This document shows positions 2,758 to 64,000 of a stretch of DNA of 64,000 bases, in pieces; positions within the stretch are counted from its first letter, which is position 1; the number at the start of each line of letters is the position of its first letter. The notes beneath the pieces were generated by a model. It saw only the letters and a program-made list of their open reading frames with translations, did no database searches and had not been told where the DNA came from. The stretch spans positions 1 through 64,000 of the forward strand of contig JAUCBJ010000742.1 of the NCBI GenBank assembly GCA_032718475.1, given 5' to 3'. The stretch comes from Nemertoderma westbladi (taxonomy: Eukaryota > Animalia > Xenacoelomorpha). Made by a program: the position numbers and the translations under genes.

Positions 2758-2868
2758 GTTAGTCTCATTGCGAAATTATTGTCATTTCAGTAAATTTAAT
2801 TATTTTTCAAAGGAAGGTAAGAAGAACTTTGCTCTACTTTAGTTACAAATAATCTGTCAATAAAACAA

Positions 2869-5800
2869 AAACCTACCAGTATCCCTTTTAGGTTCCATCC
2901 GTCCCCAACTCCAGTAAACCTACCAGTATCCCTTTTAGGTTCCCTCCATCCCCAACTCCAGTAAACCTACCAGTATCCCTTTTAGGTTCCCTCCGTCCCC
3001 AACTCCAGTAAACCTACCAGTATCCCTTTTAGGTTCCCTCCGTCCCCAACTCCAGTAAACCTACCAGTATCCCTTTTAGGTTCCCTCCGTCCCCAACTCC
3101 AGTAAACCTACCAGTATCCCTTTTAGGTTCCCCCCATCCCCAACTCCAGTAAACCTACCAGTATCCCTTTTAGGTTCCCTCCGTCCCCAACTCCAGTAAA
3201 CCTACCAGTATCCCTTTTAGGTTCCCTCCGTCCCCAACTCCAGTAAACCTACCAGTATCCCTTTTAGGTTCCCTCCGTCCCCAACTCCAGTAAACCTACC
3301 AGTATCCCTTTTAGGTTCCCCCCATCCCCAACTCCAGTAAACCTACCAGTATCCCTTTTAGGTTCCCTCCATCCGTCCCCAACTCCAGTAAACCTACCAG
3401 TATCCCTTTTAGGTTCCCTCCATCCCCAACTCCAGTAAACCTACCAGTATCCCTTTTAGGTTCCCTCCATCCCCAACTCCAGTAAACCTACCAGTATCCC
3501 TTTTAGGTTCCCTCCGTCCCCAACTCCAGTAAACCTACCAGTATCCCTTTTAGGTTCCCTCCATCCGTCCCCAACTCCAGTAAACCTACCAGTGTCCCTT
3601 TTAGGTTCCCTCCATCCCCAACTCCAGTAAACCTACCAGTGTCCCTTTTAGGTTCCCTCCATCCCCAACTCCAGTAAACCTACCAGTATCCCTTTTAGGT
3701 TCCCTCCGTCCCCAACTCCAGTAAACCTACCAGTATCCCTTTTAGGTTCCCTCCATCCGTCCCCAACTCCAGTAAACCTACCAGTATCCATTTTAGGTTC
3801 CCTCCATCCCCAACTACAGTAAACCTACCAGTATCCCTTTTAGGTTCCCTCCATCCCCAACTCCAGTAAACCTACCAGTATACCTTTTAGGTTCCCTCCA
3901 TCCGTCCCCAACTCCAGTAAACCTACCAGTATCCCTTTTAGGTTCCCTCCATCCCCAACTCCAGTAAACCTACCAGTATCCCTTTTAGGTTCCCTCCATC
4001 CCCAACTCCAGTAAACCTACCAGTATCCCTTTTAGGTTCCCTCCATCCCCAACTCCAGTAAACCTACCAGTATCCCTTTTAGGTTCCCTCCATCCGTCCC
4101 CAACTCCAGTAAACCTACCAGTATCCCTTTTAGGTTCCCTCCATCCGTCCCCAACTCCAGTAAACCTACCAGTATCCCTTTTAGGTTCCCTCCATCCGTC
4201 CCCAACTCCAGTAAACCTACCAGTATCCCTTTTAGGTTCCCTCCATCCGTCCCCAACTCCAGTAAACCTACCAGTATCCCTTTTAGGTTCCCTCCATCCG
4301 TCCCCAACTCCAGTAAACCTACCAGTATCCCTTTTAGGTTCCCTCCATCCGTCCCCAACTCCAGTAAACCTACCAGTATCCCTTTTAGGTTCCCTCCATC
4401 CGTCCCCAACTCCAGTAAACCTACCAGTATCCCTTTTAGGTTCCCTCCATCCGTCCCCAACTCCAGTAAACCAACCAGTATCCCTTTTAGGTTCCCTCCA
4501 TCCCCAACTACAGTAAACCTACCAGTATCCCTTTTAGGTTCCCTCCATCCGTCCCCAACTCCAGTAAACCTACCAGTATCCCTTTTAGGTTCCCTCCATC
4601 CCCAACTCCAGTAAACCTACCAGTATCACTTTTAGGTTCCCTCCATCCCCAACTCCAGTAAACCTAGCAGTATCCCTTTTAGGTTCCCTCCGTCCGTCCC
4701 CAACTCCATTAAACCAACCAGTATCCCTTTTAGGTTCCCTCCGTCCCCAACTCCAGTAAACCTACCAGTATCCCTTTTAGGTTCCCTCCATCCCCAACTC
4801 CAGTAAACCTACCAGTATCCCTTTTAGGTTCCCTCCATCCGTCCCCAACTCCTGTAAACCTACCAGTATCCCTTTTAGATTCCCTCCATTCCCAACTCCA
4901 GTAAACCTACCAGTATCCCTTTTAGATTCCCTCCATTCCCAACTCCAGTAAACCTACCAGTATCCCTTTTAGGTTCCCTCCATCCGTCCCCAACTCCTGT
5001 AAACCTACCAGTATCCCTTTTAGATTCCCTCCATTCCCAACTCCAGTAAACCTACCAGTATCCCTTTTAGGTTCCCTCCATCCATCCCCAACTCCAGTAA
5101 ACCTACCAGTATCTCTTTTAGGTTCCCTCCATCCGTCCCCAACTCCAGTAAACCTACCAGTATCACTTTTAGGTTTCCTCCATCCCCAACTCCAGTAAAC
5201 CTACCAGTATCACTTTTAGGTTCCCTCCATCCGTCCCCAACTCCAGTAAACCTACCAGTATCCCTTTTAGGTTCCCTCCATCCCCAACTCCAGTAAACCT
5301 ACCAGTATCCCTTTTAGGTTCCCTCCATCCATCCCCAACTCCAGTAAACCTACCAGTATCTCTTTTAGGTTCCCTCCATCCGTCCCCAACTCCAGTAAAC
5401 CTACCAGTATCACTTTTAGGTTTCCTCCATCCCCAACTCCAGTAAACCTACCAGTATCACTTTTAGGTTCCCTCCATCCGTCCCCAACTCCAGTAAACCT
5501 ACCAGTATCACTTTTAGGTTTCCTCCATCCCCAACTCCAGTAAACCTACCAGTATCACTTTTAGGTTCCCTCCGTCCGTCCCCAACTCCAGTAAACCTAC
5601 CAGTATCCCTTTTAGATTCCCTCCATTCCCAACTCCAGTAAACCTACCAGTATCCCTTTTAGGTTCCCTCCATCCATCCCCAACTCCAGTAAACCTACCA
5701 GTATCTCTTTTAGGTTCCCTCCATCCGTCCCCAACTCCAGTAAACCTACCAGTATCACTTTTAGGTTTCCTCCATCCCCAACTCCAGTAAACCTACCAGT

Positions 5801-8800
5801 ATCACTTTTAGGTTCCCTCCATCCGTCCCCAACTCCAGTAAACCTACCAGTATCCCTTTTAGGTTCCCTCCATCCCCAACTCCAGTAAACCTACCAGTAT
5901 CCCTTTTAGATTCCCTCCATTCCCAACTCCAGTAAACCTACCAGTATCCCTTTTAGGTTCCCTCCATCCGTCCCCAACTCCTGTAAACCTACCAGTATCC
6001 CTTTTAGGTTCCCTCCATCCCCAACTCCAGTAAACCTACCAGTATCCCTTTTAGATTCCCTCCATTCCCAACTCCAGTAAACCTACCAGTATCCCTTTTA
6101 GGTTCCCTCCATCCCCAACTCCAGTAAACCTAGCAGTATCCCTTTTAGGTTCCCTCCGTCCGTCCCCAACTCCATTAAACCAACCAGTATCCCTTTTAGG
6201 TTCCCTCCGTCCCCAACTCCAGTAAACCTACCAGTATCCCTTTTAGGTTCCCTCCATCCCCAACTCCAGTAAACCAACCAGTATCCCTTTTAGGTTCCCT
6301 CCGTCCCCAACTCCAGTAAACCTACCAGTATCCCTTTTAGGTTCCCTCCATCCGTCCCCAACTCCAGTAAACCTACCAGTATCCCTTTTAGGTTCCCTCC
6401 ATCCGTCCCCAACTCCAGTAAACCTACCAGTATCCCTTTTAGGTTCCCTCCATCCGTCCCCAACTCCAGTAAACCAACCAGTATCCCTTTTAGGTTCCCT
6501 CCATCCCCAACTACAGTAAACCTACCAGTATCCCTTTTAGGTTCCCTCCATCCGTCCCCAACTCCAGTAAACCTACCAGTATCCCTTTTAGGTTCCCTCC
6601 ATCCCCAACTCCAGTAAACCTACCAGTATCACTTTTAGGTTCCCTCCATCCCCAACTCCAGTAAACCTAGCAGTATCCCTTTTAGGTTCCCTCCGTCCGT
6701 CCCCAACTCCATTAAACCAACCAGTATCCCTTTTAGGTTCCCTCCGTCCCCAACTCCAGTAAACCTACCAGTATCCCTTTTAGGTTCCCTCCATCCCCAA
6801 CTCCAGTAAACCTACCAGTATCCCTTTTAGATTCCCTCCATTCCCAACTCCAGTAAACCTACCAGTATCCCTTTTAGGTTCCCTCCATCCATCCCCAACT
6901 CCAGTAAACCTACCAGTATCTCTTTTAGGTTCCCTCCATCCGTCCCCAACTCCAGTAAACCTACCAGTATCACTTTTAGGTTTCCTCCATCCCCAACTCC
7001 AGTAAACCTACCAGTATCACTTTTAGGTTCCCTCCATCCGTCCCCAACTCCAGTAAACCTACCAGTATCCCTTTTAGGTTCCCTCCATCCCCAACTCCAG
7101 TAAACCTACCAGTATCCCTTTTAGATTCCCTCCATTCCCAACTCCAGTAAACCTACCAGTATCCCTTTTAGGTTCCCTCCGTCCCCAACTCCAGTAAACC
7201 TACCAGTATCCCTTTTAGGTTCCCTCCGTCCCCAACTCCAGTAAACCTACCAGTATCCCTTTTAGGTTCCCTCCATCCGTCCCCAACTCCTGTAAACCTA
7301 CCAGTATCCCTTTTAGGTTCCCTCCATCCCCAACTCCAGTAAACCTACCAGTATCCCTTTTAGATTCCCTCCATTCCCAACTCCAGTAAACCTACCAGTA
7401 TCCCTTTTAGGTTCCCTCCATCCCCAACTCCAGTAAACCTAGCAGTATCCCTTTTAGGTTCCCTCCGTCCGTCCCCAACTCCATTAAACCAACCAGTATC
7501 CCTTTTAGGTTCCCTCCGTCCCCAACTCCAGTAAACCTACCAGTATCCCTTTTAGGTTCCCTCCATCCCCAACTCCAGTAAACCAACCAGTATCCCTTTT
7601 AGGTTCCCTCCGTCCGTCCCCAACTCCATTAAACCTACCAGTATCCCTTTTAGGTTCCCTCCTTCCCCGACTCCAGTAAACCTACCAGTATCCCTTTTAG
7701 GTTCCCTCCGTCCCCAACTCCAGTAAACCTACCAGTATCCCTTTTAGGTTCCCTCCATCCGTCCCCAACTCCAGTAAACCTACCAGTATCCCTTTTAGGT
7801 TCCCTCCATTCCCAACTCCAGTAAACCTACCAGTATCCCTTTTAGGTTCCCTCCGTCCCCAATTCCAGTAAACCTACCAGTATCCCTTTTAGGTTCCCTC
7901 CGTCCCCAACTCCAGTAAACCTACCAGTATCCCTTTTAGATTCCCTCCATTCCCAACTCCAGTAAACCTACCAGTATCCCTTTTAGGTTCCCTCCATCCA
8001 TCCCCAACTCCAGTAAACCTACCAGTATCTCTTTTAGGTTCCCTCCATCCGTCCCCAACTCCAGTAAACCTACCAGTATCTCTTTTAGGTTCCCTCCATC
8101 CATCCCCAACTCCAGTAAACCTACCAGTATCTCTTTTAGGTTCCCTCCATCCGTCCCCAACTCCTGTAAACCTACCAGTATCCCTTTTAGGTTCCCTCCA
8201 TCCCCAACTCCAGTAAACCTACCAGTATCCCTTTTAGATTCCCTCCATTCCCAACTCCAGTAAACCTACCAGTATCCCTTTTAGGTTCCCTCCGTCCCCA
8301 ACTCCAGTAAACCTACCAGTATCCCTTTTAGGTTCCCTCCATCAATCCCCAACTCCAGTAAACCTACCAGTATCTCTTTTAGGTTCCCTCCATCCGTCCC
8401 CAACTCCAGTAAACCAACCAGTATCACTTTTAGGTTTCCTCCATCCCCAACTCCAGTAAACCTACCAGTATCTCTTTTAGGTTCCCTCCATCCATCCCCA
8501 ACTCCAGTAAACCTACCAGTATCTCTTTTAGGTTCCCTCCATCCGTCCCCAACTCCTGTAAACCTACCAGTATCCCTTTTAGGTTCCCTCCATCCCCAAC
8601 TCCAGTAAACCTACCAGTATCCCTTTTAGATTCCCTCCATTCCCAACTCCAGTAAACCTACCAGTATCCCTTTTAGGTTCCCTCCGTCCCCAACTCCAGT
8701 AAACCTACCAGTATCCCTTTTAGGTTCCCTCCATCAATCCCCAACTCCAGTAAACCTACCAGTATCTCTTTTAGGTTCCCTCCATCCGTCCCCAACTCCA

Positions 8801-11800
8801 GTAAACCAACCAGTATCACTTTTAGGTTTCCTCCATCCCCAACTCCAGTAAACCTACCAGTATCACTTTTAGGTTTCCTCCATCCGTCCCCAACTCCAGT
8901 AAACCTACCAGTATCCCTTTTAGGTTCCCTCCGTCCGTCCCCAACTCCAGTAAACCTACCAGTATCCCTTTTAGATTCCCTCCATTCCCAACTCCAGTAA
9001 ACCTACCAGTATCCCTTTTAGGTTCCCTCCATCCGTCCCCAACTCCTGTAAACCTACCAGTATCCCTTTTAGGTTCCCTCCATCCCCAACTCCAGTAAAC
9101 CTACCAGTATCCCTTTTAGGTTCCCTCCATCCCCAACTCCAGTAAACCTACCAGTATCCCTTTTAGATTCCCTCCATTCCCAACTCCAGTAAACCTACCA
9201 GTATCCCTTTTAGATTCCCTCCATTCCCAACTCCAGTAAACCTACCAGTATCCCTTTTAGATTCCCTCCATTCCCAACTCCAGTAAACCTACCAGTATCC
9301 CTTTTAGGTTCCCTCCATCCCCAACTCCAGTAAACCTACCAGTATCCCTTTTAGGTTCCCTCCATCCCCAACTCCAGTAAACCTACCAGTATCCCTTTTA
9401 GGTTCCCTCCATCCCCAACTCCAGTAAACCTACCAGTATCCCTTTTAGGTTCCCTCCATCCCCAACTCCAGTAAACCTACCAGTATCCCTTTTAGGTTCC
9501 CTCCATTCCCAACTCCAGTAAACCTACCAGTATCCCTTTTAGGTTCCCTCCATCCCCAACTCCAGTAAACCTACCAGTATCCCTTTTAGGTTCCCTCCAT
9601 CCCCAACTCCAGTAAACCTACCAGTATCCCTTTTAGGTTCCCTCCATCCCCAACTCCAGTAAACCTACCAGTATCCCTTTTAGGTTCCCTCCATCCCCAA
9701 CTCCAGTAAACCTACCAGTATCCCTTTTAGGTTCCCTCCATCCCCAACTCCAGTAAACCTACCAGTATCCCTTTTAGATTCCCTCCATTCCCAACTCCAG
9801 TAAACCTACCAGTATCCCTTTTAGGTTCCCTCCATCCGTCCCCAACTCCTGTAAACCTACCAGTATCCCTTTTAGGTTCCCTCCATTCCCAACTCCAGTA
9901 AACCTACCAGTATCCCTTTTAGGTTCCCTCCATCCCCAACTCCAGTAAACCTACCAGTATCCCTTTTAGGTTCCCTCCATCCCCAACTCCAGTAAACCTA
10001 CCAGTATCCCTTTTAGGTTCCCTCCATTCCCAACTCCAGTAAACCTACCAGTATCCCTTTTAGGTTCCCTCCATCCCCAACTCCAGTAAACCTACCAGTA
10101 TCCCTTTTAGGTTCCCTCCATCCCCAACTCCAGTAAACCTACCAGTATCCCTTTTAGGTTCCCTCCATCCCCAACTCCAGTAAACCTACCAGTATCCCTT
10201 TTAGGTTCCCTCCATCCCCAACTCCAGTAAACCTACCAGTATCCCTTTTAGGTTCCCTCCATCCCCAACTCCAGTAAACCTACCAGTATCCCTTTTAGGT
10301 TCCCTCCATTCCCAACTCCAGTAAACCTACCAGTATCCCTTTTAGGTTCCCTCCATCCCCAACTCCAGTAAACCTACCAGTATCCCTTTTAGATTCCCTC
10401 CATTCCCAACTCCAGTAAACCTACCAGTATCCCTTTTAGGTTCCCTCCATCCCCAACTCCAGTAAACCTACCAGTATCCCTTTTAGGTTCCCTCCATCCC
10501 CAACTCCAGTAAACCTAGCAGTATCCCTTTTAGGTTCCCTCCGTCCGTCCCCAACTCCATTAAACCAACCAGTATCCATTTTAGGTTCCCTCCGTCCCCA
10601 ACTCCAGTAAACCTACCAGTATCCCTTTTAGGTTTCCTCCATCCCCAACTCCAGTAAACCTACCAGTATCCCTTTTAGATTCCCTCCATTCCCAACTCCA
10701 GTAAACCTACCAGTATCCCTTTTAGGTTCCCTCCATCCGTCCCCAACTCCTGTAAACCTACCAGTATCCCTTTTAGGTTCCCTCCATCCCCAACTCCAGT
10801 AAACCTACCAGTATCCCTTTTAGGTTCCCTCCATCCCCAACTCCAGTAAACCTACCAGTATCCCTTTTAGATTCCCTCCATTCCCAACTCCAGTAAACCT
10901 ACCAGTATCCCTTTTAGATTCCCTCCATTCCCAACTCCAGTAAACCTACCAGTATCCCTTTTAGATTCCCTCCATTCCCAACTCCAGTAAACCTACCAGT
11001 ATCCCTTTTAGGTTCCCTCCATCCCCAACTCCAGTAAACCTACCAGTATCCCTTTTAGGTTCCCTCCATCCCCAACTCCAGTAAACCTACCAGTATCCCT
11101 TTTAGGTTCCCTCCATCCCCAACTCCAGTAAACCTACCAGTATCCCTTTTAGGTTCCCTCCATCCCCAACTCCAGTAAACCTACCAGTATCCCTTTTAGT
11201 TTCCCTCCATTCCCAACTCCAGTAAACCTACCAGTATCCCTTTTAGGTTCCCTCCATCCCCAACTCCAGTAAACCTACCAGTATCCCTTTTAGGTTCCCT
11301 CCATCCCCAACTCCAGTAAACCTACCAGTATCCCTTTTAGGTTCCCTCCATCCCCAACTCCAGTAAACCTACCAGTATCCCTTTTAGGTTCCCTCCATCC
11401 CCAACTCCAGTAAACCTACCAGTATCCCTTTTAGGTTCCCTCCATCCCCAACTCCAGTAAACCTACCAGTATCCCTTTTAGGTTCCCTCCATTCCCAACT
11501 CCAGTAAACCTACCAGTATCCCTTTTAGGTTCCCTCCATCCCCAACTCCAGTAAACCTACCAGTATCCCTTTTAGATTCCCTCCATTCCCAACTCCAGTA
11601 AACCTACCAGTATCCCTTTTAGGTTCCCTCCATCCCCAACTCCAGTAAACCTACCAGTATCCCTTTTAGGTTCCCTCCATCCCCAACTCCAGTAAACCTA
11701 GCAGTATCCCTTTTAGGTTCCCTCCGTCCGTCCCCAACTCCATTAAACCAACCAGTATCCCTTTTAGGTTCCCTCCGTCCCCAACTCCAGTAAACCTACC

Positions 11801-12713
11801 AGTATCCCTTTTAGGTTCCCTCCATCCCCAACTCCAGTAAACCTACCAGTATCCCTTTTAGATTCCCTCCATTCCCAACTCCAGTAAACCTACCAGTATC
11901 CCTTTTAGGTTCCCTCCATCCCCAACTCCAGTAAACCTAGCAGTATCCCTTTTAGGTTCCCTCCGTCCGTCCCCAACTCCATTAAACCAACCAGTATCCC
12001 TTTTAGGTTCCCTCCGTCCCCAACTCCAGTAAACCTACCAGTATCCCTTTTAGGTTCCCTCCGTCCCCAACTCCAGTAAACCTACCAGTATCCCTTTTAG
12101 GTTCCCTCCATCCATCCCCAACTCCAGTAAACCTACCAGTATCTCTTTTAGGTTCCCTCCATCCGTCCCCAACTCCAGTAAACCAACCAGTATCACTTTT
12201 AGGTTTCCTCCATCCCCAACTCCAGTAAACCTACCAGTATCCCTTTTGGGTTCCCTCCATCCGTCCCCAACTCCAGTAAACCAACCAGTATCCCTTTTAG
12301 ATTCCCTCCATCCCCAACTCCAGTAAACCTACCAGTATCCCTTTTAGGTTTCCTCCGTCCCCAACTCCAGTAAACCAACCAGTATCACTTTTAGGTTTCC
12401 TCCATCCCCAACTCCAGTAAACCTACCAGTATCCCTTTTGGGTTCCCTCCATCCGTCCCCAACTCCAGTAAACCAACCAGTATCCCTTTTAGATTCCCTC
12501 CATCCCCAACTCCAGTAAACCTACCAGTATCCCTTTTAGGTTTCCTCCATCCCCAACTCCAGTAAACCTACCAGTATCCCTTTTAGGTTCCCTCCATCCC
12601 CAACTCCAGTAAACCTACCAGTGTCCCTTTTAGGTTCCCTCCATCCCCAACTCCAGTAAACCTACCAGTATCACTTTTAGGTTTCCTCCATCCCCAACTC
12701 CAGTAAACCTACC
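2869..12713 (+). repeat. Minisatellite array A, left part; 47-bp unit CCAGTAAACCTACCAGTATCCCTTTTAGGTTCCCTCCATCCCCAACT and a 51-bp variant (+CGTC or CATC); about 200 copies
   Basis: Uninterrupted head-to-tail repeats read directly. The unit equals the 3' end of the intron plus the first ~24 nt of exon 28704-28908. Confidence 0.98.
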
Positions 12714-15438
12714 GGCCCAAACTCACAAAAAGTGGCCAAAAACGTTTCCCACACGATTCGACTTAATTTTAGAATGAAATTTTTTTTGGAACCTAGTAAA
12801 GTTATATATATTTTTGAAGATAATTTTATGGTCCAACAGATGCACAAAAAATCATACTGCCACTCCGACTTTGAAAGATTTTACAGACCTTTTAGTACTA
12901 AAAAATGCAGGTTTTTCAATTGTCCAAAAAAGTTCATTGCATTGTGGGGGATGTATTTTGACATCTACTGGGTGTATTTCAACAAGTTATAGCTCATTTT
13001 AAAGCTAAATAATAGAGGAATGCAATGGAATAACTCCCAAATTGTTTTATTGGTATTATATTTAAATAAAACAATAGATAATATACCCCTATTTTGACAA
13101 TTACTTGTCCCAAACGGTAACACCTGAATTCACCAATAGGTTTTTATTTGGATTCTATAAACTAAATTCTTATTTGAACGGAAAATCTTCAAGAAGTGGA
13201 ATGTTCCAGATTTTACGAAAAAATACTAAACACAACCAGAGATATGGCTGGTTTTATACGTGCGAGTCGATTATGTCAATTAGGATTGTCCCATGTGTAA
13301 CACCAAGTGCACTGCTTTACCATGCTCTAGAATCAGTTCAAACAAACTTGATATTAAGATTCAAATATCAGAAGATAGCCAAGTTCTTGGTCTTTTGCGT
13401 GAGTAATCATTTGTGGCAACAATTGACTATGGAATAGACTTTAGTTGCTTTTACATTTATCAGCATGAGCTTTGTCCCACCTGTAACAAAAGCCTGTAAC
13501 ACAAAAAATCGTTACAGGGCGGGACGTCCCACATGTAACATGTAAATCGACTAATTTTGGGCTACAGAGTAAGACATGTCTCACCTGTAACACTTTAGTA
13601 GTGCAGACTTCATAATATTGATAAGACTGTAGGTCATGCACACATAACAGCAGTATTAACTGTGAATTGGTACTTACCTACCTACAGTAGTACCGGTAAC
13701 AGTATCAGTGCTGCCTCTTTATTGCGTTTGATTCGAAGTTATTGGATCTACAGATCTGCGCAGTGCATAGAGTTTACTATTGACTACTAAACAAACTAAT
13801 CCTAACCAGAACCAGTTATAAGACACTGATACAGACACTATGTGACTACGGTATAGAATAGAGACCACATTTCATTACTTATTAGACATCAGCTTGCCGT
13901 TCCGGTATCAAGATACTGATAGTCATAATAGCCACACAAAATAGCCATAATAATAGTGATCTGTCTTATATGGATAGATCTGTCCATATTCATATACATG
14001 GTGATCTGTCTTAGATCTATCTTCTGCGATTGGGAGAGGGAGATTGGGAGCTCCGTGAGGGGAGAAGTTAGAGGTGGGAGGGAAAAAAATAGAGGTGCAA
14101 GGGGAGCAGTTGGAGGTGTGAGGGGAAAAGGTAGAGGTGCAAGGGGAGCAGTTGGAGGTGCGAGGGGAAAAGGTAGAGGTGCAAGAGGAGCAGTCGGAAG
14201 TGTGATGGGAAAAGGTAGAGGTGCAAGTGGAGCAGTTGGAGGTGCGAGAGGAGTAGTTAGTGCGAGAGCAGTAGGTAGTGGTGCGAGAGGAGAATGGGAT
14301 GATCCGTGGAGGGTGTGGGAGACAGGGTGAAAAGTACAGGAGGATCTGTGGAGGGTGTGGGAAACAGGGTGAAAAGTACAGGAGGATCTGTGGAGGGTGT
14401 GGGAGACGGAGTGGGAAGTACAGGATGATTTGTGGAGGGTGTGGGAGACGGAGTGGGAGCTATGGGAGGATCTGTGGAGGGTGTGGGAGACGGAATGGGA
14501 AGTACAGGAGGATCTGTGGAGGGTGTGGGAGACAAGGTGAGAAGTACAGGAGGATCTGTGGGGGGTGTGGGAGACAGGGTGAGAAGTACAGGAGGATCTG
14601 AGGAGGGTGGGGAAGTTGGAGTGGAAGGTACAGGTGGATCTGTGGAGGGTGGGGATGAAAGTGATAATGAACAATTTACAGGTTTTGAAGGAGTGGGGGG
14701 TATGGGAAGATACGTGGCGGCTATACAAGATAACGTTTGGAATACAGGAGAATCTATGGAGGGTGTAGAAGATGGAGTGGGGAGTACAGGAGGTTCTGTG
14801 GAGGGTGGAGATGAAACTGATGAACAATTTATAGGTTTTGACTAACTGCTCAGCCATAGTGATATACAGTTATAAACTCAGTAATAAACTCGTCATACTT
14901 TTGTGAATTTTCATATAAATCGTCACTAAAGTACCTAAAAGTGGTTAAAATGTTTTAATAAACTCTTTATGTTTATTTGATAAACTATAATATTTTATAA
15001 TTTTTCCAGAAATGGGGACCATAAAGATTTCTTATGATTGATTATATTTTCAAATAAGCTTTATTGGGAGCTGTTACTGGGATCAGGAATGGCTGAATAG
15101 CTCCCACTCAGAGACGAAATCTAGCTTAATTTAACATTTCAATGTAATTACAACTGGTGTTACATGGTGGGACAAATTGTTACAGGCATCGGAAATCACC
15201 ATTCAAGGGCTCTGATTGGCTGATTTCGGGCGTTACATTGTGGGACAAGTGTTACAGGAATGGACATCTGTTTTTCTCAATTATTTGTTACCATGAGGTC
15301 GGGGCTATTGGGAAATTACCACCATTGAATTCAGCGCATCAAGAGCTTTCTGATGATATATAATATTACATACTTTGGGAAACTTTTTTTTTTAGAAAAA
15401 AAATATTTTTTTTTGGCCACTTTTTGTGATTTTAAGCC
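12714..15438. mobile_element. 2.7-kb TIR DNA transposon, apparently non-autonomous, superfamily unassigned, inserted in array A with 4-bp TSD TACC
   Basis: Left end GGCCCAAACTCACAAAAAGTGGCCAAAAA; reverse complement of right end GGCTTAAAATCACAAAAAGTGGCCAAAAA (26/29 identical). Flanks are aaacc-TACC|element|TACC-agt versus the empty unit aaacctaccagt. No transposase motif recognised. Confidence 0.9.
14080..14830. repeat. Two adjacent G-rich 42-bp minisatellites inside the transposon
   Basis: Units approximating AGAGGTGCAAGGGGAGCAGTTGGAGGTGCGAGGGGAAAAGGT (about 14090-14250) and GAAGTACAGGAGGATCTGTGGAGGGTGTGGGAGACAGGGTGA (about 14300-14650, degenerate to 14830). The overlapping ORFs show 14-aa periodicity. 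Confidence 0.85.
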
Positions 15439-18400
15439 TACCAGTATCCCTTTTAGATTCCCTCCATTCCCAACTCCAGTAAACCTACCAGTATCCCTTT
15501 TAGGTTCCCTCCATCCGTCCCCAACTCCAGTAAACCAACCAGTATCCCTTTTAGGTTCCCTCCATCCCCAACTCCAGTAAACCTACCAGTATCACTTTTA
15601 GGTTCCCTCCATCCATCCCCAACTCCAGTAAACCTATCCCTTTTATGTTCCCTCCATCCCCAACTCCAGTAAACCTACCAGTATCCCTTTTAGGTTCCCT
15701 CCATCCCCAACTCCAGTAAACCTACCAGTATCCCTTTTAGGTTCCCTCCATCCCCAACTCCAGTAAACCTATCCCTTTTAGTTTCCCTCCATCCGTCCCC
15801 AACTCCAGTAAACCTACCAGATCCCTTTTAGGTTCCCTCCATCCCCAACTCCAGTAAACCTACCAGTATCACTTTTAGGTTCCCTCCATCCCCAACTCCA
15901 GTAAACCTACCAGTATCCCTTTTAGGTTCCCTCCATCCCCAACTCCAGTAAACCTACCAGTATCACTTTTAGGTTCCCTCCATCCCCAACTCCAGTAAAC
16001 CTACCAGTATCACTTTTAGGTTCCCTCCATCCCCAACTCCAGTAAACCTACCAGTATCCCTTTTAGGTTCCCTCCATCCCCAACTCCAGTAAACCTATCC
16101 CTTTTAGTTTCCCTCCATCCGTCCCCAACTCCAGTAAACCTACCAGTATCCCTTTTAGGTTCCCTCCATCCGTCCCCAACTCCAGTAAACCTACCAGTAT
16201 CCCTTTTAGGTTCCCTCCATCCCCAACTCCAGTAAACCCACCAGTATCCCTTTTAGGATCCCTCCATCCCCAACTCCAGTAAACCTACCAGTATCCCTTT
16301 TAGGTTCCCTCCATCCCCAACTCCAGTAAACCAACCAGTATCCCTTTTAGGTTCCCTCCATCCCCAACTCCAGTAAACCTACCAGTATCCCTTTTAGGTT
16401 CCCTCCATCCCCAACTCCAGTAAACCTACCAGTGTCCCTTTTAGGTTCCCTCCATCCCCAACTCCAGTAAACCTACCAGTATCCCTTTTAGGTTCCCTCC
16501 ATCCGTCCCCAACTCCAGTAAACCTACCAGTATCCCTTTTAGGTTCCCTCCATCCCCAACTACAGTAAACCTACCAGTATCCCTTTTAGGTTCCCTCCAT
16601 CCGTCCCCAACTCCAGTAAACCTACCAGTATCCCTTTTAGGTTCCCTCCATCCCCAACTCCAGTAAACCTACCAGTATCCCTTTTAGGTTCCCTCCATCC
16701 ATCCCCAACTCCAGTAAACCTACCAGTATCCCTTTTAGGTTCCCTCCATCCGTCCCCAACTCCAGTAAACCTACCAGTATCCCTTTTAGGTTCCCTCCGT
16801 CCCCAACTCCAGTAAACCTACCAGTATCCCTTTTAGGTTCCCTCCATCCGTCCCCAACTCCAGTAAACCTACCAGTATCCCTTTTAGGTTCCCTCCATCC
16901 GTCCCCAACTCCAGTAAACCTACCAGTATCCCTTTTAGGTTCCCTCCGTCCCCAACTCCAGTAAACCTACCAGTATCCCTTTTAGGTTCCCTCCATCCGT
17001 CCCAAACTCCAGTAAACCTACCAGTATCCCTTTTAGGTTCCCTCCATCCGTCCCCAACTCCAGTAAACCTACCAGTATCCCTTTTAGGTTCCCTCCATCC
17101 GTCCCCAACTCCAGTAAACCAACCAGTATCCCTTTTAGGTTCCCTCCATCTCCAACTCCAGTAAACCTACCAGTATCCCTTTTAGGTTCTCTCCATCCCC
17201 AACTCCAGTAAACCTACCAGTATCCCTTTTAGGTTCCCTCCATCCCCAACTCCAGTAAACCTACCAGTATCCCTTTTAGGTTCCCTCCCTCTATCCCCAA
17301 CTCCAGTAAACCTACCAGTATCCCTTTTAGGTTCCCTCCGTCCCCAACTCCAGTAAACCTACCAGTATCCCTTTTAGGTTCCCTCCATCCGTCCCCAACT
17401 CCAGTAAACCTACCAGTATCCCTTTTAGGTTCCCTCCATCCGTCCCCAACTCCAGTAAACCTACCAGTATCCCTTTTAGGTTCCCTCCGTCCCCAACTCC
17501 AGTAAACCTACCAGTATCCATTTTAGGTTCCCTCCATCCGTCCCCAACTCCAGTAAACCTACCAGTATCCCTTTTAGGTTCCCTCCATCCGTCCCCAACT
17601 CCAGTAAACCAACCAGTATCCCTTTTAGGTTCCCTCCATCTCCAACTCCAGTAAACCTACCAGTATCCCTTTTAGGTTCCCTCCATCCCCAACTCCAGTA
17701 AACCTACCAGTATCCCTTTTAGGTTCCCTCCATCCCCAACTCCAGTAAACCTACCAGTATCCCTTTTAGGTTCCCTCCGTCCCCAACTCCAGTAAACCTA
17801 CCAGTATCCCTTTTAGGTTCCCTCCATCCCCAACTCCAGTAAACCTACCAGTATCCCTTTTAGGTTCCCTCCATCCCCAACTCCAGTAAACCTACCAGTA
17901 TCCCTTTTAGGTTCCCTCCATCCCCAACTCCAGTAAACCTACCAGTATCCCTTTTAGGTTCCCTCCATCCCCAACTCCAGTAAACCTACCAGTATCCCTT
18001 TTAGGTTCCCTCCATCCCCAACTCCAGTAAACCAACCAGTATCCCTTTTAGGTTCCCTCCTTCCCCGACTCCAGTAAACCTACCAGTATCCCTTTTAGGT
18101 TCCCTCCATCCGTCCCTAACTCCAGTAAACCTACCAGTATCCCTTTTAGGTTCCCTCCATCCCCAACTCCAGTAAACCTACCAGTATCCCTTTTAGGTTC
18201 CCTCCATCCCCAACTCCAGTAAACCTACCAGTATCCCTTTTAGGTTCCCTCCATCCCCAACTCCAGTAAACCTACCAGTATCCCTTTTAGGTTCCCTCCA
18301 TCCCCAACTCCAGTAAACCAACCAGTATCCCTTTTAGGTTCCCTCCGTCCCCAACTCCAGTAAACCTACCAGTATCCCTTTTAGGTTCCCTCCATCCGTC

Positions 18401-21400
18401 CCCAACTCCAGTAAACCAACCAGTATCCCTTTTAGGTTCCCTCCATCCGTCCCCAACTCCAGTAAACCTACCAGTATCCCTTTTAGGTTTCCTCCATCCC
18501 CAACTCCAGTAAACCTACCAGTATCCCTTTTAGGTTCCCTCCATCCCCAACTCCAGTAAACCTACCAGTATCCCTTTTAGGTTCCCTCCATCCGTCCCCA
18601 ACTCCAGTAAACCTACCAGTATCCCTTTTAGGTTTCCTTCATCCCCAACTCCAGTAAACCTACCAGTATCCCTTTTAGGTTCCCTCCTTCCCCAACTCCA
18701 GTAAACCTACCAGTATCCCTTTTAGGTTCCCTCCATCCCCAACTCCAGTAAACCTACCAGTATCCCTTTTAGGTTCCCTCCATCCGTCCCCAACTCCAGT
18801 AGTATCCCTTTTAGGTTTCCTCCATCCCCAACTCCAGTAAACCTACCAGTATCCCTTTTAGGTTCCCTCCTTCCTTCCCCAACTCCAGTAAACCTACCAG
18901 TATCCCTTTTAGGTTCCCTCCATCCGTCCCCAACTCCAGTAAACCTACCAGTATCCCTTTTAGGTTCCCTCCGTCCCCAACTCCAGTAAACCTACCAGTA
19001 TCCCTTTTAGGTTCCCTCCATCCGTCCCAAACTCCAGTAAACCTACCAGTATCCCTTTTAGGTTCCCTCCATCCGTCCCCAACTCCAGTAAACCTACCAG
19101 TATCCCTTTTAGGTTCCCCCCATCCCCAACTCAGTAAACCTACCAGTATCCATTTTAGGTTCCCTCCATCCCCAACTCCAGTAAACCTACCAGTATCCCT
19201 TTTAGGTTCCTTCCATCCCCAACTCCAGTAAACCTACCAGTATCCCTTTTAGGTTCCCTCCATCCGTCCCCAACTCCAGTAAACCTACCAGTATCCCTTT
19301 TAGGTTCCCTCCATCCGTCCCCAACTCCAGTAAACCAACCAGTATCCCTTTTAGGTTCCCTCCATCCCCAACTCCAGTAAACCTACCAGTATCCCTTTTA
19401 GGTTCCCTCCTTCCCCGACTCCAGTAAACCTACCAGTATCCCTTTTAGGTTCCCTCCATCCGTCCCCAACTCCAGTAAACCTACCAGTATCCCTTTTAGG
19501 TTTCCTCTATCCCCAACTCCAGTAAACCTACCAGTATCCATTTTAGGTTCCCTCCATCCCCAACTCCAGTAAACCTACCAGTATCCATTTTAGGTTCCCT
19601 CCATCCCCAACTCCAGTAAACCTACCAGTATCCCTTTTAGGTTCCCTCCATCCCCAACTCCAGTAAACCTACCAGTATACTTTTTAGGTTCCCTCCATCC
19701 CCAACTCCAGTAAACCTACCAGTATCCCTTTTAGATTCCCTCCATTCCCAACTCCAGTAAACCTACCAGTATCCCTTTTAGGTTCCCTCCATCCCCAACT
19801 CCAGTAAACCTAGCAGTATCCCTTTTAGGTTCCCTCCGTCCGTCCCCAACTCCATTAAACCAACCAGTATCCCTTTTAGGTTCCCTCCGTCCCCAACTCC
19901 AGTAAACCTACCAGTATCCCTTTTAGGTTCCCTCCATCCATCCCCAACTCCAGTAAACCTACCAGTATCCCTTTTAGATTCCCTCCATTCCCAACTCCAG
20001 TAAACCTACCAGTATCCCTTTTAGGTTCCCTCCATCCCCAACTCCAGTAAACCTAGCAGTATCCCTTTTAGGTTCCCTCCGTCCGTCCCCAACTCCATTA
20101 AACCTACCAGTATCCCTTTTAGATTCCCTCCATTCCCAACTCCAGTAAACCTACCAGTATCCCTTTTAGGTTCCCTCCATCCATCCCCAACTCCAGTAAA
20201 CCTACCAGTATCCCTTTTAGGTTCCCTCCATCCCCAACTCCAGTAAACCTACCAGTATCCCTTTTAGGTTCCCTCCATCCCCAACTCCAGTAAACCTACC
20301 AGTATCCCTTTTATGTTCCCTCCATCCGTCCCCAACTCCAGTAAACCCACCAGTATCACTTTTAGGTTTCCTCCATCCCCAACTCCAGTAAACCTACCAG
20401 TATCCCTTTTGGGTTCCCTCCATCCGTCCCCAACTCCAGTAAACCAACCAGTATCCCTTTTAGATTCCCTCCATTCCCAACTCCAGTAAACCTACCAGTA
20501 TCCCTTTTAGATTCCCTCCATTCCCAACTCCAGTAAACCTACCAGTATCCCTTTTAGGTTCCCTCCATCCGTCCCCAACTCCTGTAAACCTACCAGTATC
20601 CCTTTTAGATTCCCTCCATTCCCAACTCCAGTAAACCTACCAGTATCCCTTTTAGGTTCCCTCCATCCGTCCCCAACTCCTGTAAACCTACCAGTATCCC
20701 TTTTAGGTTCCCTCCATCCGTCCCCAACTCCAGTAAACCTACCAGTATCCCTTTTAGGTTCCCCCCATCCCCAACTCAGTAAACCTACCAGTATCCATTT
20801 TAGGTTCCCCCCATCCCCAACTCAGTAAACCTACCAGTATCCATTTTAGGTTCCCTCCGTCCCCAACTCCAGTAAACCTACCAGTATCCCTTTTAGATTC
20901 CCTCCATTCCCAACTCCAGTAAACCTACCAGTATCCCTTTTAGGTTCCCTCCATCCGTCCCCAACTCCTGTAAACCTACCAGTATCCCTTTTAGGTTCCC
21001 TCCATCCGTCCCCAACTCCAGTAAACCTACCAGTATCCCTTTTAGGTTCCCCCCATCCCCAACTCAGTAAACCTACCAGTATCCATTTTAGGTTCCCTCC
21101 ATCCCCAACTCCAGTAAACCTACCAGTATCCCTTTTAGGTTCCTTCCATCCCCAACTCCAGTAAACCTACCAGTATCCCTTTTAGGTTCCCTCCATCCGT
21201 CCCCAACTCCAGTAAACCTACCAGTATCCCTTTTAGGTTCCCTCCTTCCCCAACTCCAGTAAACCTACCAGTATCCCTTTTAGGTTCCCCCCATCCCCAA
21301 CTCAGTAAACCTACCAGTATCCATTTTAGGTTCCCTCCATCCCCAACTCCAGTAAACCTACCAGTATCCCTTTTAGGTTCCTTCCATCCCCAACTCCAGT

Positions 21401-24400
21401 AAACCTACCAGTATCCCTTTTAGGTTCCCTCCATCCGTCCCCAACTCCAGTAAACCTACCAGTATCCCTTTTAGGTTCCCTCCATCCGTCCCCAACTCCA
21501 GTAAACCAACCAGTATCCCTTTTAGGTTCCCTCCTTCCCCAACTCCAGTAAACCAACCAGTATCCATTTTAGGTTCCCTCCATCCCCAACTCCAGTAAAC
21601 CTACCAGTATCCCTTTTAGGTTCCTTCCATCCCCAACTCCAGTAAACCTACCAGTATCCCTTTTAGGTTCCCTCCATCCGTCCCCAACTCCAGTAAACCT
21701 ACCAGTATCCCTTTTAGGTTCCCTCCATCCGTCCCCAACTCCAGTAAACCAACCAGTATCCCTTTTAGGTTCCCTCCTTCCCCAACTCCAGTAAACCTAC
21801 CAGTATCCCTTTTAGGTTCCCTCCATCCGTCCCCAACTCCAGTAAACCTACCAGTATCCCTTTTAGGTTCCCTCCATCCGTCCCCAACTCCAGTAAACCA
21901 ACCAGTATCCCTTTTAGGTTCCCTCCTTCCCCAACTCCAGTAAACCTACCAGTATCCCTTTTAGGTTCCTTCCATCCCCAACTCCAGTAAACCTACCAGT
22001 ATCCCTTTTAGGTTCCCTCCATCCGTCCCCAACTCCAGTAAACCTACCAGTATCCCTTTTAGGTTCCCTCCTTCCCCAACTCCAGTAAACCTACCAGTAT
22101 CCCTTTTAGATTCCCTCCATCCCCAACTCCAGTAAACCTACCAGTATCCCTTTTAGGTTCCCTCCATCCCCAACTCCAGTAAACCTACCAGTCCCTTTTA
22201 GGTTCCCTCCGTCCCCAACTCCAGTAAACCTACCAGTATCACTTTTAGGTTCCCTCCGTCCCCAACTCCAGTAAACCTACCAGTGTCCCTTTTAGGTTCC
22301 CTCCATCCGTCCCCAACTCCAGTAAACCTACCAGTATCCCTTTTAGATTCCCTCCATCCCCAACTCCAGTAAACCTACCAGTATCCCTTTTAGGTTCCCT
22401 CCATCCCCAACTCCAGTAAACCTACCAGTATCCCTTTTAGGTTCCCTCCATCCCCAACTCCAGTAAACCTACCAGTATCCCTTTTAGGTTCCCTCCGTCC
22501 CCAAGTCCAGTAAACCTACCAGTATCCCTTTTAGGTTCCCTCCTTCCCCAACTCCAGTAAACCTACCAGTATCCCTTTTAGATTCCCTCCATCCCCAACT
22601 CCAGTAAACCTACCAGTATCCCTTTTAGATTCCTTCCATCCCCAACTCCAGTAAACCTACCAGTATCCCTTTTAGGTTCCCTCCGTCCCCAACTCCAGTA
22701 AACCTACCAGTATCCCTTTTAGGTTCCCTCCTTCCCCAACTCCAGTAAACCTACCAGTATCCCTTTTAGATTCCCTCCATCCCCAACTCCAGTAAACCTA
22801 CCAGTATCCCTTTTAGGTTCCCTCCATCCCCAACTCCAGTAAACCTACCAGTATCCCTTTTAGGTTCCCTCCGTCCCCAACTCCAGTAAACCTACCAGTA
22901 TCACTTTTAGGTTCCCTCCGTCCCCAACTCCAGTAAACCTACCAGTGTCCCTTTTAGGTTCCCTCCATCCGTCCCCAACTCCAGTAAACCTACCAGTATC
23001 CCTTTTAGATTCCCTCCATCCCCAACTCCAGTAAACCTACCAGTATCCCTTTTAGGTTCCCTCCATCCCCAACTCCAGTAAACCTACCAGTATCCCTTTT
23101 AGGTTCCCTCCATCCCCAACTCCAGTAAACCTACCAGTGTCCCTTTTAGGTTCCCTCCATCCCCAACTCCAGTAAACCTACCAGTATCCCTTTTAGGTTC
23201 CCTCCATCCCCAACTCCAGTAAACCTACCAGTATCCCTTTTAGGTTCCCTCCGTCCCCAACTCCAGTAAACCTACCAGTATCCCTTTTAGGTTCCCTCCA
23301 TCCCCAACTCCAGTAAACCTACCAGTATCCCTTTTAGGTTCCCTCCATCCCCAACTCCAGTAAACCTACCAGTATCCCTTTTAGGTTCCCTCCGTCCCCA
23401 ACTCCAGTAAACCTACCAGTATCCCTTTTAGGTTCCCTCCGTCCCCAACTCCAGTAAACCTACCAGTGTCCCTTTTAGGTTCCCTCCATCCGTCCCCAAC
23501 TCCAGTAAACCTACCAGTATCCCTTTTAGATTCCCTCCATCCCCAACTCCAGTAAACCTACCAGTATCCCTTTTAGGTTCCCTCCGTCCCCAACTCCAGT
23601 AAACCTACCAGTATCCCTTTTAGGTTCCCTCCTTCCCCAACTCCAGTAAACCTACCAGTATCCCTTTTAGGTTCCCTCCATCCCCAACTCCAGTAAACCA
23701 ACCAGTATCCCTTTTAGGTTCCCTCCATCCGTCCCCAACTCCAGTAAACCTACCAGTATCCCTTTTAGGTTCCCTCCATCCCCAACTCCAGTAAACCAAC
23801 CAGTATCCCTTTTAGGTTCCCTCCATCCGTCCCCAACTCCAGTAAACCTACCAGTATCCCTTTTAGATTCCCTCCATCCCCAACTCCAGTAAACCTACCA
23901 GTATCCCTTTTAGGTTCCCTCCATCCGTCCCCAACTCCAGTAAACCTACCAGTATCCCTTTTAGGTTCCCTCCGTCCCCAACTCCAGTAAACCTACCAGT
24001 ATCCCTTTTAGGTTCCCTCCTTCCCCAACTCCAGTAAACCTACCAGTATCCCTTTTAGGTTCCCTCCATCCCCAACTCCAGTAAACCAACCAGTATCCCT
24101 TTTAGGTTCCCTCCATCCGTCCCCAACTCCAGTAAACCTACCAGTATCCCTTTTAGATTCCCTCCATCCCCAACTCCAGTAAACCTACCAGTATCCCTTT
24201 TAGGTTCCCTCCGTCCCCAACTCCAGTAAACCTACCAGTATCCCTTTTAGGTTCCCTCCTTCCCCAACTCCAGTAAACCTACCAGTATCCCTTTTAGGTT
24301 CCCTCCATCCCCAACTCCAGTAAACCAACCAGTATCCCTTTTAGGTTCCCTCCATCCGTCCCCAACTCCAGTAAACCTACCAGTATCCCTTTTAGGTTCC

Positions 24401-27400: not shown

Positions 27401-28745
27401 CCTACCAGTATCCCTTTTAGATTCCCTCCATCCATCCCCAACTCCAGTAAACCTACCAGTATCCCTTTTAGGTTCCCTCCATCCCCAACTCCAGTAAACC
27501 TACCAGTATCCCTTTTAGGTTCCCTCCATCCCCAACTCCAGTAAACCTACCAGTATCCCTTTTAGGTTCCCTCCATCCCCAACTCCAGTAAACCTACCAG
27601 TATCCCTTTTAGGTTCCCTCCATCCCCAACTCCAGTAAACCTACCAGTATCCCTTTTAGGTTCCCTCCATCCCCAACTCCAGTAAACCTACCAGTATCCC
27701 TTTTAGATTCCCTCCATCCCCAACTCCAGTAAACCTACCAGTATCCCTTTTAGGTTCCCTCCATCCCCAACTCCAGTAAACCTACCAGTATCCCTTTTAG
27801 GTTCCCTCCATCCCCAACTCCAGTAAACCTACCAGTATCCCTTTTAGGTTCCCTCCATCCCCAACTCCAGTAAACCTACCAGTATCCCTTTTAGGTTCCC
27901 TCCATCCCCAACTCCAGTAAACCTACCAGTATCACTTTTAGGTTCCCTCCATCCCCAACTCCAGTAAACCTACCAGTGTCCCTTTTAGGTTCCCTCCATC
28001 CCCAACTCCAGTAAACCTACCAGTATCACTTTTAGGTTCCCTCCATCCCCAACTCCAGTAAACCTACCAGTGTCCCTTTTAGGTTCCCTCCATCCCCAAC
28101 TCCAGTAAACCTACCAGTATCCCTTTTAGGTTCCCTCCATCCCCAACTCCAGTAAACCTACCAGTGTCCCTTTTAGGTTCCCTCCATCCCCAACTCCAGT
28201 AAACCTACCAGTATCCCTTTTAGGTTCCCTCCATCCCCAACTCCAGTAAACCTACCAGTGTCCCTTTTAGGTTCCCTCCATCCCCAACTCCAGTAAACCT
28301 ACCAGTATCCCTTTTAGGTTCCCTCCGTCCCCAACTCCAGTAAACCTACCAGTATCCCTTTTAGGTTCCCTCCATCCGTCCCCAACTCCAGTAAACCTAC
28401 CAGTATCCCTTTTAGGTTCCCTCCATCCCCAACTCCAGTAAACCTACCAGTATCCCTTTTAGGTTCCCTCCATCCCCAACTCCAGTAAACCCACCAGTAT
28501 CCCTTTTAGGTTCCCTCCATCCATCCCCAACTCCAGTAAACCTACCAGTATCCCTTTTAGGTTCCCTCCATCCCCAACTCCAGTAAACCTACCAGTATCC
28601 CTTTTAGGTTCCCTCCGTCCCCAACTCCAGTAAACCTACCAGTATCCCTTTTAGGTTCCCTCCATCACCAACTCCAGTATAAACCTACCAGTATCCCTTT
28701 TAGGTTCCCTCCATCCCCAACTCCACTAAACCTCCCACTATCTCC
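15439..28745 (+). repeat. Minisatellite array A, right part; same 47/51-bp unit, about 275 copies; the last copy is the likely functional acceptor and exon start
   Basis: Resumes in register right after the transposon (taccagtatccc) and grades into coding sequence (ctccactaaacctcccactatctcc) at about 28721-28745. Confidence 0.98.
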
Positions 28746-28908: not shown

Positions 28909-29001
28909 GTTAGATATTACAAGTTATTGTTTCAATAATTAACAATTCTTGGTATTAATCAACCTGTGTTCTATATTAATCCGCGCATTATTCTTCCATA
29001 G

Positions 29002-61500: not shown

Positions 61501-64000
61501 TTGCGAAAATACAACCTAGGACAGGTGAGATATTGCGAAAATACAACCAGGACAGGTGAGATATTGCGAAAATACAACCAGGACAGGTGAGATATTGCGA
61601 AAATACAACCAGGACAGGTGAGATATTGGGAAACTACAACCCAAGACAGGTGAGATATTGGTAAACTACAACCCAGGACAGGTGAGATATTGGTAAACTA
61701 CAACCCAAGACAGGTGAGATATTGCGAAAATACAACCAGGACAGGTGAGATATTGCGAAAATACAACCAGGACAGGTGAGATATTGCGAAAATACAACCA
61801 GGACAGGTGAGATATTGCGAAAATACAACCAGGACAGGTGAGATATTGGGAAACTACAACCCAAGACAGGTGAGATATTGGTAAACTACAACCCAGGACA
61901 GGTGAGATATTGGTAAACTACAACCCAAGACAGGTGAGATATTGGTAAACTACAACCCAAGACAGGTGAGATATTGGTAAACTACAACCCAGGACAGGTG
62001 AGATATTGGTAAACTACAACCCAGGACAGGTGAGATATTGCGAAAATACAACCAGGACAGGTGAGATATTGCGAAAATACAACCAGGACAGGTGAGATAT
62101 TGCGAAAATACAACCAGGACAGGTGAGATATTGCGAAAATACAACCAGGACAGGTGAGATATTGGGAAACTACAACCCAAGACAGGTGAGATATTGGTAA
62201 ACTACAACCCAGGACAGGTGAGATATTGGTAAACTACAACCCAAGACAGGTGAGATATTGGTAAACTACAACCCAAGACAGGTGAGATATTGGTAAACTA
62301 CAACCCAGGACAGGTGAGATATTGGTAAACTACAACCCAGGACAGGTGAGATATTGCGAAAATACAACCAGGACAGGTGAGATATTGCGAAAATACAACC
62401 AGGACAGGTGAGATATTGCGAAAATACAACCAGGACAGGTGAGATATTGGGAAACTACAACCCAGGACAGGTGAGATATTGCGAAAATACAACCAGGACA
62501 GGTGAGATATTGCGAAAATACAACCAGGACAGGTGAGATATTGCGAAAATACAACCAGGACAGGTGAGATATTGCGAAAATACAACCAGGACAGGTGAGA
62601 TATTGCGAAAATACAACCAGGACAGGTGAGATATTGGGAAAATACAACCAGGACAGGTGAGATATTGGTAAACTACAACCCAAGACAGGTGAGATATTGG
62701 TAAACTACAACCCAGGACAGGTGAGATATTGGTAAACTACAACCCAGGACAGGTGAGATATTGCGAAAATACAACCCAGGACAGGTGAGATATTGCGAAA
62801 ATACAACCTAGGACAGGTGAGATATTGCGAAAATACAACCAGGACAGGTGAGATATTGCGAAAATACAACCAGGACAGGTGAGATATTGCGAAAATACAA
62901 CCAGGACAGGTGAGATATTGGGAAACTACAACCCAGGGCAGGTGAGATATTGGTAAACTACAACCCAAGACAGGTGAGATATTGGTAAACTACAACCCAG
63001 GACAGGTGAGATATTGGTAAACTACAACCCAGGACAGGTGAGATATTGCGAAAATACAACCAGGACAGGTGAGATATTGCGAAAATACAACCAGGACAGG
63101 TGAGATATTGCGAAAATACAACCAGGACAGGTGAGATATTGCGAAAATACAACCAGGACAGGTGAGATATTGCGAAAATACAACCAGGACAGGTGAGATA
63201 TTGGGAAACTACAACCCAGGACAGGTGAGATATTGGTAAACTACAACCCAAGACAGGTGAGATATTGGTAAACTACAACCCAGGACAGGTGAGATATTGG
63301 TAAACTACAACCCAGGACAGGTGAGATATTGGTAAACTACAACCCAGGACAGGTGAGATATTGCGAAAATACAACCTAGGACAGGTGAGATATTGCGAAA
63401 ATACAACCAGGACAGGTGAGATATTGCGAAAATACAACCAGGACAGGTGAGATATTGCGAAAATACAACCAGGACAGGTGAGATATTGGGAAACTACAAC
63501 CCAAGACAGGTGAGATATTGGTAAACTACAACCCAGGACAGGTGAGATATTGGTAAACTACAACCCAGGACAGGTGAGATATTGGTAAACTACAACCCAG
63601 GACAGGTGAGATATTGCGAAAATACAACCTAGGACAGGTGAGATATTGCGAAAATACAACCAGGACAGGTGAGATATTGCGAAAATACAACCAGGACAGG
63701 TGAGATATTGCGAAAATACAACCCAGGACAGGTGAGATATTGGTAAACTACAACCCAGGACAGGTGAGATATTGCGAAAATACAACCCAGGACAGGTGAG
63801 ATATTGCGAAAATACAACCAGGACAGGTGAGATATTGCGAAAATACAACCAGGACAGGTGAGATATTGCGAAAATACAACCAGGACAGGTGAGATATTGG
63901 GAAACTACAACCCAAGACAGGTGAGATATTGGTAAACTACAACCCAGGACAGGTGAGATATTGGTAAACTACAACCCAGGACAGGTGAGATATTGGTAAA
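31571..64000 (+). repeat. Minisatellite array B; 32-bp unit CAACCCAGGACAGGTGAGATATTGGTAAACTA and 31-bp variant CAACCAGGACAGGTGAGATATTGCGAAAATA; about 1,000 copies, running off the window end
   Basis: Read directly. The unit equals the last ~20 nt of exon 31485-31590 (TAACCTACCACCCAGGACAG) plus the first ~12 nt of the intron (GTGAGATATTGG). Confidence 0.98.

Follow-up and report, generated by a model that had tools for sequence, protein, structure and literature searches.

In amphioxus, tandem copies of exon-intron boundaries known as "mirages" occur on the acceptor or the donor side of exons in Adh3, the globin genes BflGb6 and BflGb9, troponin C and PGBD5; they evolve in concert, splicing is normal and they do not appear to disturb it (PMC3087553; PMC3902484). 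On the donor side, the first unit of a 37-bp variable number tandem repeat (VNTR) in intron 7 of human F7 spans the exon-intron boundary and is followed by identical donors, of which the most upstream is used; IFI6 (6-16), CBS, LMNB2 and PDGF are further donor-side cases, with 5-9 copies in F7 and up to 25 spare sites in IFI6 (PMC1557585). In intron 18 of human ABCA7 each unit of a 25-bp VNTR begins with a donor GT, and the longest alleles, of 10.7 kb, hold about 427 copies. Low-level use of the next donor copy yields out-of-frame RNA sensitive to nonsense-mediated decay, the out-of-frame forms amounting to 14% and 2% (PMC5954066), and VNTR length raises skipping of the next exon (PMC5954066, PMC13747324). 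These accounts, and the comparisons made with them below, follow the accessible portions of the papers cited. Here we describe two arrays of this kind in one CAMTA-like gene of the xenacoelomorph Nemertoderma westbladi, on the forward strand of contig JAUCBJ010000742.1 (assembly GCA_032718475.1), positions 1 to 64,000, the 64,000-nt stretch that we call the window.

Two junction-spanning arrays in one gene

Four exons of a spliceosomal gene lie in the window, together with two large tandem arrays. Array A is made of head-to-tail units that join the end of an intron to the start of exon 2, while the units of array B join the end of exon 4 to its donor. Joining the exons at 1318-2757, 28704-28908, 29002-29146 and 31485-31590 gives 632 codons with zero stops. 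Four of the eight sequencing runs listed (X1-X4) were compared with 28655-31640, all as contigs, for which summed depth is not copy number. In one of these, X3, a single 1,529-nt contig of depth 196 has two GT..AG joints (exon 2 to 3 and exon 3 to 4), aligns to exactly 31590 and continues for 1,088 further letters that are absent from the window and would be further exons. Because this contig leaves the window exactly at 31590, the main RNA form appears to use the first donor out of more than 1,000 copies. Taken together, it is probable that the two arrays lie in introns of a spliced gene, that they arose from ordinary duplication of short, mostly exonic pieces and grew by unequal exchange, and that each is removed in one ordinary splicing step. 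The features are listed below.

1318 to 2757, plus strand: exon 1 of the CAMTA-like gene, 480 codons, ankyrin repeats (open frame, Pfam Ank_2, donor AAT/GTTAGT at 2758)
1852 to 1937, plus strand: in-frame tandem duplication within exon 1, 36 bp, 2.4 copies (Tandem Repeats Finder, TRF)
2680 to 2745, plus strand: in-frame tandem duplication within exon 1, 21 bp, 3.1 copies (TRF)
2758 to 2868, plus strand: unique start of the intron, A+T-rich, 26% GC (sequence, GC)
2869 to 12713, plus strand: first block of array A, about 203 units, each a polypyrimidine-AG plus the start of exon 2 (TRF, unit parse)
12714 to 15438, no strand assigned: 2,725-bp non-array insertion (terminal inverted repeats, target-site duplication, internal repeats)
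15439 to 28742, plus strand: second block of array A, about 275 units, the last partial copy being the real exon start (unit parse, frame)
28704 to 28908, plus strand: exon 2, 205 nt, donor CAG/GTTAGA (X3 contig covers 28719-28906 and joins exon 3)
29002 to 29146, plus strand: exon 3, 145 nt, preceded by a 93-nt intron (GT..AG joints on both sides in X3)
30055 to 30678, plus strand: broken reverse-transcriptase fragment of the long interspersed nuclear element (LINE) type, a high-copy repeat in the 2,338-nt intron (Pfam RVT_1, summed depth)
31485 to 31590, plus strand: exon 4, 106 nt, whose donor CAG/GTGAGA at 31591 is copy 1 of array B (X3 contig identical to 31590, then off the window)
31571 to 64000, plus strand: array B, units of 32 or 31 bp, the end of exon 4 plus the donor (TRF period 32, unit parse)

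A preliminary description of this DNA had seen both arrays as amplified exon-intron boundaries, with about 480 copies in A and about 1,000 in B, had found the frame kept only at acceptor 28703 and donor 31591, and had noted exons free of stops and frameshifts. All of this agrees with the present analysis. TRF recovers both arrays and their units span the junctions. In array A (TRF period 47, 2869-28742) 480 acceptor-equivalent unit ends were parsed, with the AG intact in 475. The units are 47 or 51 bp long, in the minisatellite range (10-160 bp in the described mirages), and are mostly exon rather than intron (39 of 47 nt). The majority unit differs from the real exon copy at three sites (+23, +31 and +35). 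Of the 1,644 AG dinucleotides between 2758 and 28760 a single one, at 28703, opens an in-phase frame into exon 2, and it is by this frame that we take 28703 as the real acceptor. At the edges of the array a 15-nt stretch, identical between intron and exon at 13 of 15 positions, flanks one unit, and both edge units carry private variants (2892; 28663-28684).

For array B, TRF at period 32 counts 1021.1 copies; the array continues beyond the end of the window, so that 1,021 copies is a minimum. The donor GT is kept at 1019 of 1021 positions. About 24 of the 32 nt of the unit are exonic. A few substitutions and deletions separate the unit from the real exon copy; in one class of variant units more exon sequence is kept, and the match stretches back to about 31564. 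The units have no polypyrimidine tract. Around the donor, the 13 nt from -2 to +11 (31589-31601, and the same positions in every unit) are almost invariant over 1,020 units, 16 of the 17 substitution classes falling in the exon-derived part. Private variants mark the first four copies (31613-31714). Read on through donor 31591, the frame is closed four codons later, and a stop is therefore carried by all subsequent copies of this donor. None of the four poly(A) hexamers tested is present in the unit, and a single 31-nt unit pattern found 0 matches among metagenome contigs.

The splice signals are intact in about 99% or more of the copies, and the decoys have not been purged even beside the exons, where the first 25 donors and the last 12 acceptors are intact. 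Unit types number 72 in A and 52 in B and lie in patches; the mean difference from the majority unit is 2.1 (A) and 1.5 (B) per unit, and exact repeats inside the arrays reach at most 560 and 612 nt. Patchy variants together with homogenised units would be expected of real turnover, which is thereby partly shown.

The preliminary description of array A had overlooked the insertion at 12714-15438; once it is subtracted the repeat DNA comes to about 23 kb rather than 26. The insertion has 29-nt terminal inverted repeats that are 90% complementary, a 4-nt target-site duplication (12710-12713 and 15439-15442) and an interior of 21/42-bp repeats, and is likely a non-autonomous DNA transposon; no transposase match to Pfam was found in the 5 of its 14 open reading frames that were scanned. 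Sub-terminal 16-nt repeats lie near both ends in opposite orientation. The G-rich 21-bp and 42-bp repeats (13889-14869 on the minus strand, and 14037-14860) hold long open frames on both strands (326, 194 and 178 aa), which had no Pfam match above cut-off among those scanned and are likely a by-product of the repeats.

The 9-nt word AACCTACCA is found at 2870-2878 in unit A and at 31572-31580 in the exon copy of unit B (post hoc p about 0.01 in 2,000 shuffles), and the target site of the insertion also falls within this word. A motif shared between unit A and unit B themselves is not significant (p 0.28-0.67).

CAMTA proteins have CG-1 and TIG domains upstream of their ankyrin repeats and IQ motifs downstream; in the present gene the exons for these would lie outside the window. 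The mid-protein ankyrin repeats are present here (Ank_2 in exon 1, E 1.4e-8), and the exon 2/3 junction encodes a peptide that may resemble CAMTA. The top feature match in the ESM Atlas is the CMTA1 cluster (0.96, 167 shared features), rated weak by the tool (recognition score 2065), and protein sequence searches gave no CAMTA orthologue, with only generic ankyrin proteins among the matches listed (20, 46 and 150) or none. "CAMTA-like" seems a fair label. The words of exon 1 are present at 0.84-0.89 in three sequencing runs.

In the 2,338-nt intron before exon 4 the reverse-transcriptase fragment has two matches to RVT_1 (E 3.8e-6 and 1.9e-6) that fall short of the curated cut-off. At 30866-31012 this intron holds another short high-copy repeat, and both repeats have very high summed depth in all four runs examined. 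Upstream of exon 1, at 1058-1268, are short inverted repeats with arms of 27 and 25 nt, probably small transposon remnants. An Rfam scan of positions 1-33000 gave 0 matches.

Splice-site choice

No run is on record as RNA; X3 was classed as RNA-type from its spliced joints and from six bins of unique intron that it leaves uncovered and that X1 and X2 cover at depths of 19-35. RNA from the donor at 31590 onward had been put forward as a check on the preliminary description, and the exact departure of the X3 contig at that position bears it out. Of the two modes of removal then envisaged, the choice of one site among decoys is seen for the first donor, whereas stepwise removal is opposed by a regenerated donor that would match the consensus at only 3 of 9 positions. 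X1 and X2 are DNA-like, with unique depths of 27 and 19 and array-bin summed depths from thousands to more than 100,000. As summed depth is not copy number, these values confirm both repeats as multi-copy but not their assembled lengths. A 591-nt contig of X1 has 3 differences from the window, so that X1 is not the source of the window sequence; the long contigs of X2 show no differences, and X2 may be the source sample.

The contigs of X1 (DNA) and X3 (RNA-type) both begin at 28719, and that of X2 at 28696; the starts at 28719 would be accounted for if X1 and X3 shared a variant at 28718, which is a third codon position. The scarcity of array-A-type sequence in X3, a sum of about 380 depth x letters outside the exon contig, was considered as evidence and rejected, since 28704-28718 also lacks the expected cover.

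On the acceptor side, the unique intron start and the first acceptor copy (2891) together form a 134-nt intron-like unit, with a branch-like TNAY motif 40 nt before the AG, and this is likely the ancestral intron. TNAY motifs precede 5 of the 480 acceptors of array A, and 8 of 135 possible single changes would create one. The last unit before the true acceptor has two private changes at 28663-28684, one of which makes a TNAY motif 37 nt before the AG. As a mark of the true site this is a weak hint, since edge units diverge anyway. Folding predicts a weak hairpin over every acceptor of array A, the true one included (z -2.6, 4/200 shuffles), and no stable structure in array B (z +2.7); it thus marks the true site of neither array. 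AGTAAA hexamers, a weak variant of the poly(A) signal, number 455 in array A (2869-28703).

Array A offers a natural test of 3' splice-site choice. A first-come rule favours 2891, which lies 134 nt from the donor, yet protein results only from the copy 25.8 kb further on. With 480 near-identical acceptors, the first in a normal short-intron context and the last alone in frame, the test is a sharp one. The array also shows how a satellite within a gene can arise from exon sequence.

Origin of the arrays and alternatives

We envisage the duplication of a piece of 32-47 bp that lay across a splice site. For array A, the imperfect 15-nt direct repeat (13/15 identical) that flanks one unit could have started the duplication. 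Duplications inside an exon would have to remain small and in frame, like the two in exon 1. If the unit carries a splice site, on the other hand, all copies but one stay intronic, so the array would be free to grow, presumably by unequal exchange, which would leave variant patches and homogenised units. The two small duplications in exon 1 imply that this gene repeatedly duplicates short exonic pieces and that only those carrying a splice site became large. For the donor, the first copy is chosen in the one RNA-type contig, as in F7; for the acceptor, the frame suggests that the last copy is chosen, likely through pairing with the donor 205 nt downstream. Mis-spliced RNAs would carry stops and may be cleared by nonsense-mediated decay. 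The arrays are thus likely an unusually large, harmless example of a known repeat type.

A rough null was made for the junction-spanning share of tolerated seeds, that is, seeds either wholly intronic or junction-spanning. With the introns of today this share is 0.09 and 0.06 (6-9%), and 0.006 for both arrays; with two short introns only it is 0.58 and 0.43 (43-58%), and 0.25 for both. The null uses one window chosen post hoc and ignores G+C. It neither demands nor excludes targeting.

Several points weigh against the reading of ordinary duplication and single-step splicing. The X3 contig starts at 28719 and so does not show the join 2757>28704; the first acceptor copy, in its normal 134-nt intron context, should compete well. 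Some sequence of the array-B type is present in X3 too, at a summed depth of 33.7 (31616) where the exon has 196, and could reflect either precursor RNA or occasional use of later donors. Because rare forms are lost from contigs, decoy use could be greater than X3 shows, and the arrays of the X3 individual may have other lengths. The null chance of two junction-spanning arrays is only about 0.006 with present introns (post hoc). Finally, unit B varies less on its intron side than over the rest of its length (p 0.03-0.045 in a post hoc scan, 0.11-0.13 in a prior window), a pattern that pure drift does not predict; this and the private TNAY motif point weakly beyond drift.

The preliminary description had favoured a junction-targeted, possibly splicing-linked amplification. 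A process such as breaks or R-loops at splice junctions would then seed and expand arrays preferentially at exon edges in this lineage. Both large arrays of the window do span junctions, improbably so under the null with present intron sizes, and the word common to unit A and the exon copy of B also speaks for such a process. With short introns the same null is unremarkable, however, units A and B share no significant motif, their lengths and exon shares differ, and the gene has exon-internal duplications too; the accessible text of PMC3087553 calls the mechanism of origin of mirages unclear and offers no evidence for targeting. The survival filter accounts for the position of the arrays, and targeting appears unlikely. 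Selection for the donor copies, with more than 1,000 U1 sites protecting the nascent RNA across a giant intron or tuning output, would explain why only 1 of 17 substitution classes of array B falls in the 13 nt from -2 to +11, where about 5 are expected (the scan-corrected p being that given above), and the donor of B matches the consensus at 7 of 9 positions. The prior window from -3 to +6 is not significant, though, array A has no such pattern (p 0.17-0.80), and the substitution classes are few and not independent. As unit B lacks the four poly(A) hexamers tested, there is little inside it to protect against, and we regard such selection as highly improbable. A broader proposal is that of self-licensing satellites, where a working splice signal in each unit lets arrays reach tens of kb in an expressed gene, and where junctions throughout the genome of this lineage carry more arrays than the survival filter alone would leave, while either the donor side is under active conservation (more than 1,000 U1 sites) or the acceptor array is removed stepwise. 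In this full form it seems doubtful.

Stepwise, or recursive, removal would have exon 1 join an early acceptor copy, whose AG/GT regenerates a donor, so that array A is excised piecemeal. This is attractive in that 412 unit ends read TTTTAG/GTT, and joining exon 1 there recreates GT with a zero-length exon and the frame kept, while the first copy, 134 nt from the donor, has TNAY 40 nt upstream. The AG of a ratchet site is followed by a strong donor motif; here AG/GT is present with a weak donor (3/9), against 6-7/9 for the four real donors by the donor consensus. Since the true acceptor reads AG/GT as well, a ratchet would have no cause to spare exon 2, yet this exon is present in the RNA contig. 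If internal GT sites served as donors after an acceptor copy, the resulting mini-exons would measure 22, 26 or 34 nt and be out of frame, and the units of array B have no polypyrimidine tract, all of which makes removal in steps very unlikely. It might also be supposed that the arrays are real with an assembled length that is inflated or wrong: no long read across either array was seen, the runs gave contigs whose summed depth is not copy number, and X2, whose long contigs match the window without difference, may be the source sample. Yet X1, which is not the source, has array-bin summed depths of 7,461 and 33,987 against 27 in unique sequence, the longest exact repeats are only 560 and 612 nt among patchy variants, and a 2.7-kb element with a matching target-site duplication sits inside array A, so a gross error of length is quite unlikely.

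Relation to known systems

The arrangement itself and the first-donor rule have already been published, in mirages, F7 and ABCA7. As in mirages, the units span the boundary head to tail (10-160 bp in mirages) and the AG or GT is kept in many copies. The edge units with private variants and the homogenised interior recall the boundary exclusion of BflGb6 (PMC3087553). Mirages are spliced regularly at the authentic site; here the use of donor 31591 is seen in a single contig from one run, and acceptor 28703 is taken as real from the frame. The copy numbers given for mirages are 2-7 (Adh3 not counted), compared with 480 and at least 1,021 here, and in the present gene both polarities bracket three exons, with a transposon-like element within one array.

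Intron satellites of the Drosophila Y genes kl-3 and kl-5 are reportedly not copies of the genes' own junctions. These genes resemble ours in being expressed with introns swollen by tandem repeats, though at the megabase scale (PMC6508621, PMC11207136). The accessible part of PMC10078293 has nothing on junction-spanning units, and in the literature covered, to which most subscription papers and the Adh3 paper do not belong, we found acceptor-side arrays of no more than a handful of copies and donor-side arrays of at most about 427.

Array B resembles F7 in that its first unit spans the boundary and the first donor is used; the F7 group is confined to the donor side, whereas an acceptor array is present here too. 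The unit of ABCA7 is intronic, its first letters being the GT, whereas about three quarters of unit B is exonic, and compared with ABCA7 array B has at least 2.4 times the copies and 3 times the length. What is unusual here is the size, above all on the acceptor side, and the presence of both polarities in one gene; this is the largest example found of the junction-spanning kind of repeat.

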